A stretch of 64,000 nt of DNA from an uncultured Gemmatimonadaceae bacterium. Lineage in GTDB: Bacteria; Gemmatimonadota; Gemmatimonadetes; Gemmatimonadales; Gemmatimonadaceae. A model generated the notes under the pieces. The model saw nothing but the letters and a program-made list of their open reading frames with translations. It ran no database searches and was not told where the DNA came from. Shown one piece after another: positions 15,436 to 21,386 of this stretch (the first letter of the stretch is position 1; each line of letters opens with the position of its first letter). The stretch is from positions 160,001-224,000 of the forward strand of contig CAWAGQ010000007.1 of the NCBI GenBank assembly GCA_963781585.1, in the 5' to 3' direction. Both the position numbers and the translations under genes were made by a program.

Positions 15436-15546
15436 GCCTAACGCCCGCAATTCTGCTGCGGCGCGATCACAACAATGCGGCTGGCGAATGGAATGAGCCA
15501 GCCGCGCACCGCATTATGCGCCGACAGCAGCAATTGCTCGTTGTGC
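15436..15546 (-). other. attC site
   Basis: GCCTAAC-GCAATT CTGCTG CGGCGC...GCGCCG A CAGCAG C AATTGC-GTTGTGC. Confidence 0.92.
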
Positions 15547-15819
15547 CGCGCGGCGTAGAAGAAGCGGAACCACCAGGGCGTCGCGCTCGCGGCGCCGGCA
15601 TGGACACCGGTCTGTCCACCCTCCGCAAAGTGCACATCGGAGAGCGCGTCAGCGAACGCTTTCGCGGACTCGAAGCGATCGGCGGGGAGTTCTCAAGTGG
15701 CGGTCGTGCTTGAGGTCCTGGGCGAGGTAGACGGTGGTCATGCCGCCCTGACCGAGTTATTCCTCGATCCTGCAGCGGCCGGCAAGAGCGGCGTTGAGCC
15801 GTTCGGTATTGTTTCTCAT
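15547..15819 (-). pseudogene. Internally deleted third Ser/Thr kinase
   Basis: MRNNTERLNAALAGRCRIEE*LGQGGMTTVYLAQDLKHDR is joined to PADRFESAKAFADAL. Confidence 0.85.
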
Positions 15820-18467
15820 TTTGCTGCTCCGGTCACGTTCTCGAACACCACAACGCGATCTGGCAACACCCGGCCCAGCTCTCGATGAAACACGAAACGT
15901 TGGTCGTCAGCTGCAAGGCTGTATTCGACCACAAGGGATAGCGAGCGAAACCGCTCCGCTGAAAACAGGACGTGTGGTCTATCGAACACGAATGTCGGCC
16001 CGGGCGTCAGCGGCACGCTCACCATGTTGGCGTTGCCGTCGCGGAAGAACAGCTCGCGGCCACTGTGACTCCACACTGGGTCCGACCCGCCGTCCGGCGA
16101 CACCAGCCAATTGCCGTCGCTCGTGTTCGGGAAGGGCCGCACCCGGACCTGCGCCCGGCCGGTTTCGAGCGTGGTGTACGCCAACCAGCGCCCGTCCGGC
16201 GAGACCGCCGGTTGCGATTCCTGGTACGGCGTGACCACCAGCGGGACTCGCGTGGTGTCACCGGTGCGGCGCACGCCGATCAGGTCGGAGGAGCCGCCAC
16301 CACCGTTGCGATACACGATCCAGCGATTGTCCGCGGTGAAAAAGACTTCGTGCACCTGCTCCGGATCGTAGAGCAGGGGTCGCTCGGGCTCCGACGCATC
16401 GGCGCGACGGATGTACGCCTCGCGCTTGCCGGCGCGATCCGCCATGTAGGCGACGGAGGTTCCGTCAGGTGTCCATTGCGGCCGGATGCCGCCATTGAAG
16501 CTCAACTGCGTCATCCGCCCGTTGTCCAGTTGCCGCACCCACACCTGCCCGCCGCGTGTTACCGCGAGCCGGCGACCATCGGGTGAGAGCTTGAAGGCGC
16601 CGTTCGGTGTCAGCTGGTCGTTCCAGCCGGGGTCCACCGGGCGGACCACGCCTTGTCGCGTGACCCAGACGACGTCAGTGGTGTCGTGAGCGTCGCTTTC
16701 CGCCATGTAGATCAGCGTGCCTTGCGACGACGTGGTGAAGTCGGGAACGAAGTCAGGCGCGCCCACTGACCCGAATACGACGCGCTCGACAAGCATCCGT
16801 GGCTCACCGGACAAACGCAGGTTGCGGGCGTCAAACGACTGGATCATCAGCGCACCGTTGCGCTCGGGCGCAAACACCAGGTATCCCGGCACATACTCGG
16901 CGTACGATCCGCGGGTCAGCACACGGTACTTGCCGGTGGCCTGGTCGGCGATGGCGATCTCAGAGCGCGCCGCATTCGCCCGATACTTGATGACGAAGAG
17001 GATGCCACGCCCGTCGGGCAGCGCGCACGGAAAGACGTGGTCGTCCTCGCCCGCCGCCGAGTCCACCGTGGTGAAGCGAACCGGCGTGCCGCCCTGCGCG
17101 GACACCTTCACGATGCCGGTGCGGCCGGAACCGTGAGCGTAGATGAACCCATCGGACGACCACGTCGCGCCGGCGTAGCCAATCCCGGTCGTGGCCACCG
17201 GAACCACAGGTCCGCCGTCCAATGGCACGACCTTGATGGTGCCGCGCGGACTCACGAAGCCGATCTTCGCGTTGTCGGGCGAGAAAAACGGAACTTCGGC
17301 ACCCTCCGTACCGGCGATCTCGACCGGCGACAACTGGTCGCGTGGCAGGACGAACAGCCGCCGCTCACCGCCCGCACCCTCGTGCAGGTACGCCAGGCGT
17401 GAGCCGTCCGGCGACAGTGCGATGCGGCGGAACCAGGCGCTCACCTCCCGCCCCTCAGGAAGTTGGAGCATGTACCGTCGCACGGGCGACTCCGGCGACG
17501 CACGTGTCCCACGCCAGCCCCACGCCGCCAGCGCTAGCGCGACGACGCCAACGGCGGCCACGGCAACGAACACGGGGTCGCGGAACCTGCCCAGGGCGGA
17601 TGCGGGCTGCACGCGCGTGGTTCCCGCTGCGGTGAATGCCGGGTTGACCAGGGCATCGGCAAACGCCTTGGCGGAGTCGAAGCGATCGGCCGGCACCTTC
17701 TCGAGCGCCTTGCGCAGTGCGTCGGCGACGTTGGGTGGCACCGACTTGCGGTGCTGCGTCACATCGCCGGCCGGCTCGGCGATGATCTTCATGATGATCT
17801 GCTGCGCGCTGCCACCCAGGTGCGGCGGCTGGCCAGCGAGCATCTCGTAGAGCACCGATGCCAGCGAGTAAATGTCGCTGCGACCGGTGATCTCCTTCTC
17901 CGCAGTGGCTTGCTCGGGCGACATGTAGTGCGGCGTGCCGAGCGAGAGGCCGGTCTCGGTCATGCGTCCGCCGGCGGCGGCAGAGACAGCGAGCGCAATG
18001 CCGAAGTCGGCCACCATGGGGCGACCGTCGTGGAGCAGGATGTTCTCGGGCTTGATGTCGCGGTGGATGACGCCGTGGCGGTGGGCGTAGTCCAGCGCGT
18101 CAGCGACCTGCGTGGTGATGCGAACGGCTTCGTCGACGCCGAGTTGTGTTTCGCGATCGAGTTTCCCGCGCAGGGTCTCCCCTTCTATATATGGCATCAC
18201 GTAGTACAGGAATCCGTCCGCGGTGCCGGAGTCGAAGAGCGGCAGGATGTGCGGGTGCTGGAGCGCGGCGGTGGTCTTGATCTCCACGACGAACCGTTCC
18301 GCGCCGAGCACGGCGGCGAGCTCGGGCTTCAGGACTTTGACGGCGACCTTGCGGTCGTGCTTGAGGTCGGCGGCGAGGTAGACGGTGGCCATGCCGCCCT
18401 GACCGAGCTGCTTCTCGATCTTGTAGCGACCCGCGAGTGCCGCGTTGAGGCGCTCGGTGCCGCTCAT
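15816..18467 (-). CDS. Ser/Thr protein kinase with TM helix and TolB-like propeller
   Basis: LGQGGMATV, HRDIKPEN, DFG, SPE, then SPDG repeats. Confidence 0.95.
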   Translation of the reverse strand: MSGTERLNAALAGRYKIEKQLGQGGMATVYLAADLKHDRKVAVKVLKPELAAVLGAERFVVEIKTTAALQHPHILPLFDSGTADGFLYYVMPYIEGETLRGKLDRETQLGVDEAVRITTQVADALDYAHRHGVIHRDIKPENILLHDGRPMVADFGIALAVSAAAGGRMTETGLSLGTPHYMSPEQATAEKEITGRSDIYSLASVLYEMLAGQPPHLGGSAQQIIMKIIAEPAGDVTQHRKSVPPNVADALRKALEKVPADRFDSAKAFADALVNPAFTAAGTTRVQPASALGRFRDPVFVAVAAVGVVALALAAWGWRGTRASPESPVRRYMLQLPEGREVSAWFRRIALSPDGSRLAYLHEGAGGERRLFVLPRDQLSPVEIAGTEGAEVPFFSPDNAKIGFVSPRGTIKVVPLDGGPVVPVATTGIGYAGATWSSDGFIYAHGSGRTGIVKVSAQGGTPVRFTTVDSAAGEDDHVFPCALPDGRGILFVIKYRANAARSEIAIADQATGKYRVLTRGSYAEYVPGYLVFAPERNGALMIQSFDARNLRLSGEPRMLVERVVFGSVGAPDFVPDFTTSSQGTLIYMAESDAHDTTDVVWVTRQGVVRPVDPGWNDQLTPNGAFKLSPDGRRLAVTRGGQVWVRQLDNGRMTQLSFNGGIRPQWTPDGTSVAYMADRAGKREAYIRRADASEPERPLLYDPEQVHEVFFTADNRWIVYRNGGGGSSDLIGVRRTGDTTRVPLVVTPYQESQPAVSPDGRWLAYTTLETGRAQVRVRPFPNTSDGNWLVSPDGGSDPVWSHSGRELFFRDGNANMVSVPLTPGPTFVFDRPHVLFSAERFRSLSLVVEYSLAADDQRFVFHRELGRVLPDRVVVFENVTGAAK

Positions 18468-21094: not shown

Positions 21095-21278
21095 TGGGCG
21101 CTAGTGCAGCCGGCGGTCGGGCTCGGCACGATTGCAATATGGCGCTGGGCGGCCCGCCCAGCGAGCGATCCTGAATTCGACGAAGGGCGCGAAGGATAGT
21201 GGCGCCATCCTTGCTCTTGCCCGTTCAGCTGCGGCTATTCACCAAACGCAGCGAGAGGCTCGATGCCGGATGACGTCG

Positions 21279-21386
21279 GCACAACGGACTGGCAATAAGC
21301 TGCGGTGCAGTTCAACCGTTGGTCGCCGTGTCGCAACACGGCGGCCTTCCAGAGCCTGCGCCGGCTGCTTCATTGCCTTGTTAGGC
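21279..21386 (-). other. attC site
   Basis: GCACAAC-GGCAAT AAGCTG...CTGCTT C ATTGCC-GTTAGGC. Confidence 0.88.

Follow-up and report, generated by a model that had tools for sequence, protein, structure and literature searches.

A 5,843-bp unit carrying tandem Ser/Thr receptor kinase genes in the genome of an uncultured Gemmatimonadaceae bacterium is, with a probability that we put at roughly 0.65, a true cassette belonging to a sedentary chromosomal integron, with a cargo that represents part of the tandem receptor kinase rows typical of the lineage, comprising a leader, two full kinase genes (K1 and K2), and the decayed front of a third (K3). The unit lies in a 64,000-nucleotide stretch of DNA (assembly GCA_963781585.1, contig CAWAGQ010000007.1, positions 160,001 to 224,000), which was analyzed as a whole and is referred to here as the window. 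Within the window lies a chromosomal integron belonging to a Gemmatimonadales genome, with an integron integrase gene (intI), an attI site, and an array of attC sites. That the kinase unit is one integron cassette is well supported by its matched non-consensus R boxes, by the lack of an internal attC in our scans, and by its place in a true intI-attI-attC array, while the evidence that its cargo would be a captured piece of a kinase operon is circumstantial. The unit and its parts are as follows.

15442-21284, minus strand: kinase cassette, 5,843 bp, GC 0.665, from TTGTGC... through the G of its own R'
21279-21386, minus strand: attC of the hicAB cassette, which precedes the kinase unit; R' GTTGTGC (21285-21279), with the crossover G|TT that starts the kinase cassette
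21095-21284, minus strand: leader, 190 nt, non-coding, upstream of K1
18464-21094, minus strand: K1, Ser/Thr kinase with membrane segment and PD40 beta-propeller, 876 aa; Pkinase match of the 1.7e-47 class, plus PD40
15816-18467, minus strand: K2, same architecture as K1, 883 aa; Pkinase and PD40; start overlaps the K1 stop by 4 nt
15547-15819, minus strand: K3 remnant; start overlaps the K2 stop (ATGA); in-frame TAA; ~650-nt internal deletion
15436-15546, minus strand: attC of the kinase cassette itself, 111 nt; R'' GCACAAC (15546-15540), R' GTTAGGC

Boundaries of the kinase cassette

The sequence GTTGTGCCG occurs in the window in exactly two copies, at 15540-15548 (plus strand) and 21277-21285 (minus strand). 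Read on the minus strand, GTTGTGCCG at 21285-21277 faces CGGCACAAC at 15548-15540, a non-consensus pair that is complementary at 9/9 positions. The original prediction, made from the letters of this DNA alone, had drawn a unit from the core at 21277-21285 to the complementary R'' at 15540 and had seen no attC within it; both points hold, and the coordinates of the core were right, although its strand labels were mirrored. The same kind of agreement is found elsewhere in the array. Wherever a non-consensus R' box is followed by a clear attC, the R'' of that next site is exactly complementary to it, the pairs being GTTAGAC/GTCTAAC (attI and the first cassette), GTTGTGC/GCACAAC (the kinase unit), and GTTATAC/GTATAAC (the brnTA unit). 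Matched R'/R'' boxes are the expected signature of units that were once circles and were inserted by the integrase at G|TT. On its other side, the hicAB attC has the R'' GCCTAAC, which carries the hicB stop codon.

Both attC sites that bound the unit fold into a single long hairpin. The fold of 15436-15548 has two single-base bulges and a z score of -3.36, with 0/200 shuffled sequences as stable, and that of 21277-21386 is likewise bulged, with a z score of -3.04 and 1/200 shuffles as stable. The attC of the kinase cassette is 77% identical over 109 nt to that of the brnTA cassette (10123-10232). When arm profiles were rebuilt from 8 other sites of the array, leaving out the two that flank the kinase unit, these leave-out profiles recovered both arms of the 15436-15546 site (E values of 9e-4 and 4e-3) and the 5' arm of the 21279-21386 site (E value of 7e-3).

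Three scans of the interior of the unit for a further attC were negative. The genome-wide run of the arm profiles gave 0 matches in 15547-21278 at E ≤ 10, and the leave-out profiles gave one weak spot, at 15896-15921, where a 5'-arm match (E 0.18) and a 3'-arm match (E 0.77) overlap and no hairpin is therefore possible. A structure scan of all AAC...GTT pairs inside the unit returned candidates at background level only, the best of which, at 18791-18930 inside K1, was rejected as an unrelated branched fold with unpaired ends (z -1.9/-1.6). The K1/K2 and K2/K3 junctions are 4-nt overlaps (ATGA), so that there is no room for an attC between the genes.

The integron and the size of its cassettes

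The head of the array lies upstream of the kinase unit, with the integrase gene and attI in direct succession:

25858-26859, minus strand: intI, integron integrase, 333 aa, in the same direction as the cassettes; scores 434.7 bits on TIGR02249 (cut-off 265) and spans profile positions 1-315 of 315
25785-25857, minus strand: attI region, ~70 nt, directly after the intI stop; reads gtccaatatttGTTAGAC, with the crossover box GTTAGAC at 25791-25785

The window integrase passes the IntI-specific model TIGR02249 over its full length and is the sole complete copy in the genome (5.7 Mb in 17 contigs, 67% GC). The R'' box of the first cassette, GTCTAAC (25345-25339), is complementary to the attI box GTTAGAC at 7/7 positions, and intI, attI, and cassettes all run in one direction. 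At least 11 attC sites lie downstream of intI on the same strand (735-848, 4046-4188, 4963-5055, 5737-5854, 10123-10232, 10862-10979, 12173-12266, 14689-14746, 15436-15546, 21279-21386, and 22755-22865), and a copy of the 14689 site is present at 25288-25345. These sites were mapped by scanning for R''...R' hairpins, by scanning again for paired arms, and by inspecting the sequence itself; GCCTAAC-N-AGCAATTGCAGCTGACGGCG is the type of 5' arm that they have in common, together with its partner, and the R box consensus of the array is GCCTAAC/GTTAGGC. On the minus strand, the 5' arm is in every case the longer one and bears the bulged bases. Under what we take to be the canonical attC geometry, this makes the minus strand the top strand, matching the coding strand of the cassette genes. 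The cargo of the array includes hicAB, brnTA, a PIN-Phd pair, a helix-turn-helix protein, an M28 peptidase, and unknowns.

The kinase unit is the fourth after attI if a degenerate site near 21830-21950 is counted. This stretch, between a lipoprotein gene and hicA, has a clear R'' GCCTAAC and L'' arm and a degenerate 3' side without GTTAGGC, and may be a decayed attC. Separate arm profiles were used instead of a covariance model because RNAalifold, run on a MAFFT alignment of 10 attC sites, misaligned the arms and gave no consensus structure. A genome-wide scan for AAC...GTT hairpins, with 1,328 non-overlapping candidates at 67% GC, was too unspecific for mapping arrays.

IntI-like matches (E ≤ 1e-40) were found in 47/61 genomes searched within the order, many of them with stop codons; the tally takes in the unpublished genomes G008, G050, and G051. 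In the 20-kb stretches downstream of the intI homologues of relatives, the attC arm profiles match the intI strand, with 31 two-arm sites at one locus (L096). Within the window's own genome, a decayed intI copy lies on contig C13 (C13:298994-299432), a second attC cluster adjoins the decayed intI fragments there (C13:298994-340500), and a small cluster lies on contig C5 (C5:58700-62800).

The size of the kinase cassette sets it apart within this group of arrays. Across 66 two-arm spacings from the window genome and 8 related arrays, the median attC spacing was 715 bp, and 5,843 bp was the largest of the 66 without an internal match or an insertion element. Two other long units of the window array do contain such elements, the 4,384-bp unit an IS21 element and a 3,263-bp unit an IS91-type element. 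The IS21-family element (7363-9716), which encodes an rve-domain transposase of 529 aa and an IstB of 255 aa, lies within the 4.4-kb unit 5737-10122 and adjoins the M28 peptidase gene. Spacings of 6.3 kb and 7.7 kb in two related arrays (L102 and L103) were considered as large cassettes and set aside; they have single-arm matches inside and are probably not single units.

In one published account, the largest known cassettes are put at ~2 kb and the clustering limit of IntegronFinder at 4 kb (PMC4889954). The array would be broken at the kinase cassette by annotation tools whose clustering of attC sites stops at 4 kb, and the cassette would extend the known size about threefold over the figure used in 2016. 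A limited literature search found no published description of such a cassette, although print may hold some, and supplementary size tables may hold larger cassettes.

Given its size, the kinase cassette is probably rarely mobile. Among public sequencing data, 11 runs hold small shares of the stretch, 0.19 at most, and four of these were examined for the region. On the sensor parts they yielded short, low-depth contigs, and over the conserved kinase domain sequence of other organisms piled up. Joints found in the four runs lie between paralogous kinase domains and have short sides; none lies at the cassette ends, and they are uninformative on excision.

The kinase cargo, its origin, and rival explanations

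The two coupled genes of about 880 aa that had been predicted, each encoding a kinase, a membrane segment, and a propeller, are borne out in K1 and K2. Their PF00069 scores are 162-166 bits, the VAIK, HRDIKPEN, DFG, and SPEQ motifs are readable in both translations, and both look catalytically intact from their sequences; the propellers are PD40/TolB-like. The kinase domains of K1 and K2 are 84.9% identical (237/279 positions), against 29% (149/512) in the sensor part. By analogy with the family at large, both proteins presumably couple periplasmic sensing to phosphorylation. A role as an anti-phage kinase (PD-T4-6, MADS6) was considered and rejected, as the PADLOC matches are confined to the kinase domain and NF047741 reaches 168-180 bits against a cut-off of 460.

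The third gene is, as had been foreseen, a deleted copy that reads into R''. K3 aligns to the kinase over nt 9-120 at 84% identity, then has the TAA and the ~650-nt gap, and aligns again over nt 773-821 at 82%, after which juxtamembrane-like sequence continues in frame up to R''. It is without the membrane segment and all beyond it and is truncated where R'' begins; its last frame crosses R'' and stops in the attC. For the leader upstream of K1, neither the genome nor the 82 loci compared hold a homologue, and no sigma-70-like promoter was found on its coding strand, other promoter types being outside the coverage of the scan.

Several features of the cargo point to the kinase rows of the lineage. 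Kinase-domain matches occur at no fewer than 35 loci of the window's genome, and the family is present in 41/41 related genomes searched (a tally that includes the unpublished genome G008), often in long same-strand rows, for instance one of more than 20 adjacent matches at G035:C3:312-403 kb. Four-nucleotide gene overlaps and short N-terminal remnants are also found in or beside kinase rows elsewhere, and four loci (L050, L017, L046, and L048) have rows of 5-6 genes with N-terminal remnants of ~40-90 aa. The Gemmatimonadales rows of kinase, membrane segment, and beta-propeller genes resemble the cassette in domain architecture and length, in the adjacency of their members, in their short N-terminal remnants, and in a kinase domain conserved at 80-89% beside a divergent sensor part; unlike the cassette, they have no attC flanks. 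None of the 72 genome loci and none of the 77 metagenome loci of the kinase family encodes an IntI.

The closest relative of K2 (L115; 72% identity over 879 aa) has another kinase gene on either side, in a metagenome contig of 4.7 kb that gave no attC match, while the best relatives of K1 (L050 and L163) are 59-60% identical to it. The GC content at third codon positions (GC3) is 0.839 in K1 and 0.826 in K2, close to the host median of 0.815 (interquartile range 0.747-0.849; 1,735 long open reading frames) and unlike the 0.60-0.78 of 14 other cassette open reading frames. At the nucleotide level K3 is 84% identical to both K1 and K2.

Kinases are also found in other cassettes. In a genome of the same genus (G001, locus L103), a 2.29-kb cassette at 2223-4514, second in line behind attI, has a single kinase-TPR gene of 637 aa as its content; the cassette begins at the R' GTTAGGC and closes with an attC whose R'' is GCCTAAC. 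A metagenome contig (L187) has a 3.25-kb unit between an attI-like gtccaatatgaGTTAGGC at 4098, an array head that resembles the end of the window attI, and an attC at 7255-7356 that is followed by a further cassette. The unit contains a kinase remnant of ~35 N-terminal amino acids that overlaps, by ATGA, a complete kinase-propeller gene of 878 aa. In at least three cases, then, integron cassettes hold parts of kinase rows that have fragments at the edges. On the L187 contig, the attI-like site heads its cassette array ~540 nt past a tRNA-like sequence, with no intI between them (3470-4104). Separately, solitary attC-like matches occur near kinase genes at three loci (L046, L058, and L128).

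We hypothesize that an unbroken stretch of a kinase row, from the leader through K1 and K2 to the front of K3, would have been joined to an attC of the array's family, the source row coming from the lineage and not necessarily from the window's genome. The joined unit would have circulated at least once as a circle and been inserted at G|TT, in a capture that would be old. The internal deletion and the stop codon of K3 could have arisen before or after capture, such remnants being common in native rows. Present mobility would be rare or nil owing to size, and expression would come from read-through or from an unrecognized promoter in the leader.

A number of observations weigh against a sedentary cassette captured from a kinase row, some of them bearing on its boundaries and others on its history. 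The 3' arm of the 21279-21386 attC was missed by the leave-out profile. The consensus for the R boxes of attC sites is RYYYAAC/GTTRRRY; GCACAAC differs from it at one position, as does GTTGTGC, and the one change compensates the other. The arm profiles were trained on the window's own array, and a very divergent internal attC could escape them. Neither a second copy nor an empty site nor a circle junction was seen, the public-run contigs over the region being short. One preprint reports for Vibrio cholerae that cassette recovery declines with size and that a cassette whose attC sites stood 4 kb apart could not be recovered (10.64898/2026.03.17.712381).

As to history, the genome has no donor locus: K1 and K2 are each other's best nucleotide match, at 81.7%, and the other paralogs reach at most 80%. 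No relative has the same cassette, the best full-length identity being 60% for K1 and 72% for K2. The 5.7-kb interior has no copy of the box GCCTAAC, against 1.6-2.4 expected there (P ~0.09-0.2) and 12 copies in 28.4 kb of 12 paralogous kinase open reading frames, which hints weakly at an evolution of the cargo outside the window's genome. The claim that a piece of a host kinase operon had been captured thus stands in part. The lineage-wide tandem rows, the overlaps and remnants, the host-like GC3, and the position of L115 in a plain row all favor it, and the proposed comparison with kinase clusters found the family and its rows throughout the relatives, but as there is no donor locus in the genome, "host" can mean the lineage only.

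Against the rival explanations stand the gene overlaps, the places taken by the insertion elements, and the complementarity of the ends. In the first rival, a small earlier cassette, perhaps with the single kinase gene K3, would have been enlarged by homologous or illegitimate recombination with a chromosomal row and without involvement of the integrase. K3 is indeed scarred by its 650-nt internal deletion and its truncation, kinase domains that are 80-85% alike among paralogs are a substrate for recombination, and single-kinase cassettes of 2.3 and 3.25 kb exist elsewhere. We nevertheless consider enlargement unlikely. There is no trace of another cargo gene, and K1, K2, and K3 are mutual closest relatives in the kinase domain (81.7-84%, against at most 80% for other paralogs), as would be expected if they came from one contiguous source. 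A small cassette that had these ends and into which the kinases had been inserted by another mechanism was the case named as contrary to the original prediction; none was found, the 26-nt R''-L'' stretch having 0 exact metagenome matches and the brnTA attC being the sole similar site in the genome.

Fusion of two or three kinase cassettes through loss of the attC sites between them would also account for a long unit, since single-gene kinase cassettes exist, and the weak profile match at 15896-15921 lies near the end of K2. The two arm matches there, however, fall on the same 25 nt and form no hairpin, and with exact 4-nt start/stop overlaps at K1/K2 and K2/K3 an attC cannot have stood between the genes; we regard fusion as very improbable.

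Equally little favors, in our view, an origin in which the IS91-type elements that flank the region brought in the kinases without the integrase, either by ISCR-like read-through or as a composite of two direct copies. The elements and the cassettes that adjoin the kinase unit are placed as follows.

12257-14744, plus strand: IS91-family element with an IntI-like tyrosine recombinase gene, copy 1, between the R'' and L'' of the attC of the vapC-phd cassette
14751-15367, minus strand: PIN (VapC-like) and Phd-like gene pair, the downstream neighbor cassette of the kinase unit
21381-21801, minus strand: hicA and hicB cassette, the upstream neighbor of the kinase unit
22856-25343, plus strand: IS91-family element, copy 2, with 99.7% identity to copy 1; lies within the first cassette's attC

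IS91 and ISCR elements mobilize adjacent DNA, and here two copies that are 99.7% identical flank an 8.1-kb segment that includes the kinases. The 10-mer CGCGGCACAA is, moreover, common to the end hairpin of the element and the K3/R'' junction, with three window sites (14702-14711, 15541-15550, and 25301-25310) against 0.35 expected, of which two only are independent and the agreement may be chance. The kinase unit, however, contacts neither element, the vapC-phd cassette standing between on one side and the hicAB and lipoprotein gene cassettes on the other; its ends are attC R boxes and not element ends; and a third copy of the element, on contig C13, is without a kinase. Least credible of all is an assembly artefact in which a contig with a kinase row was misjoined into the integron: completeness of the genome is 93.5%, its contamination 7.2%, and there are contigs that resemble paired versions of one another, but a misjoin would not create complementary 9-mers at both junctions, and a short contig of public run X2, possibly the run of the source sample, spans the K3/attC junction (15456-15606, with 2 differences).

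Known systems, cassette birth, and the setting of the window

The IS91-type element is present in the genome in three copies of 2.5 kb that are 99.7-100% identical, the third at C13:307514-310001. Its transposase matches NF033538 at 353 bits against a cut-off of 125, as well as PF04986 and PF14319, and its 301-aa recombinase scores 201 bits with TIGR02249, below the cut-off. The element has the ends GTTGAACTC...GAGTTCAAC, and every copy sits precisely where the R'' box of a resident attC would meet its L'' arm; the remainder of that attC, up to GTTAGGC, is likewise common to copies 1 and 3. An IS91-like element adjoining an attC is mentioned for Shewanella in another study (PMC9229058). The arrangement in the window resembles ISCR/IS91 capture beside class 1 integrons in that a rolling-circle element of the IS91 family lies within an integron and flanks the region, and it differs in that the kinase unit ends in attC boxes and is not joined to the element.

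Among known systems, the kinase unit is closest in form to the cassettes of sedentary chromosomal integrons such as the Vibrio cholerae superintegron. Like these, it is bounded by G|TT, ends in an attC hairpin, and has first bases that complement its own R'', and its array resembles those of the V. cholerae type in being long, in carrying toxin-antitoxin cassettes, and in having mutually similar attC sites. It is unlike them in its 5.84 kb, in its two full genes and a pseudogene, and in a cargo of signaling receptors typical of the lineage. More than one translationally coupled gene per cassette is also seen in the two-gene toxin-antitoxin cassettes of the window array (hicAB, brnTA, and vapC-phd), but those are functional pairs of 0.55-0.75 kb, whereas the kinase cassette holds paralogous 2.6-kb receptor genes and a fragment cut at the attC. 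We know of no kinase cargo described for the Treponema-type group of integrons. The layout of the Treponema integron, in which intI, attI, and cassettes are co-directional (PMC4889954), is shared by the window and its relatives, which belong to a different phylum.

The cassette shows a type of source and a joint together, in that its cargo is of the lineage's type, bears the hallmarks of native rows, and includes a gene cut at the attC, and few such objects exist. The origin of integron cassettes is described as a question of long standing by a recent preprint (10.1101/2024.07.02.601719). In the window cassette the join point of the attC lies inside a gene (K3), and the L187 cassette has a gene fragment at its front. 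We tentatively suggest, as a possibility that we consider doubtful, that the kinase cassette may be a fossil of cassette birth: integrons of Gemmatimonadales might repeatedly cut out pieces of kinase rows and fuse each piece, at an arbitrary point, to an attC, shuffling receptors, and attC-mimicking IS91-recombinase elements could supply rolling-circle single strands or an attC-like joint. Receptor kinases are, at any rate, integron cargo in soil bacteria.

The integron occupies a part of the window with a distinct composition, GC over the left 27 kb being 0.58-0.68, lower and more uneven than in the remainder. The box GCCTAAC and its complement occur in the window 26 times against 2.9 expected, and 13 of these copies lie above 27 kb, outside the integron; genome-wide there are 1,591 copies of GCCTAAC, or one per 3.6 kb. 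At the level of the assembly, two pairs of contigs (C11/C17 and C5/C8) have kinase loci with equal spacing and similar query identity, as if they were paired versions of one region. The part of the window beyond the integron also contains a 62-nt direct repeat, 97% identical, at 55225-55286 and 62624-62685, its two copies being 7.4 kb apart.

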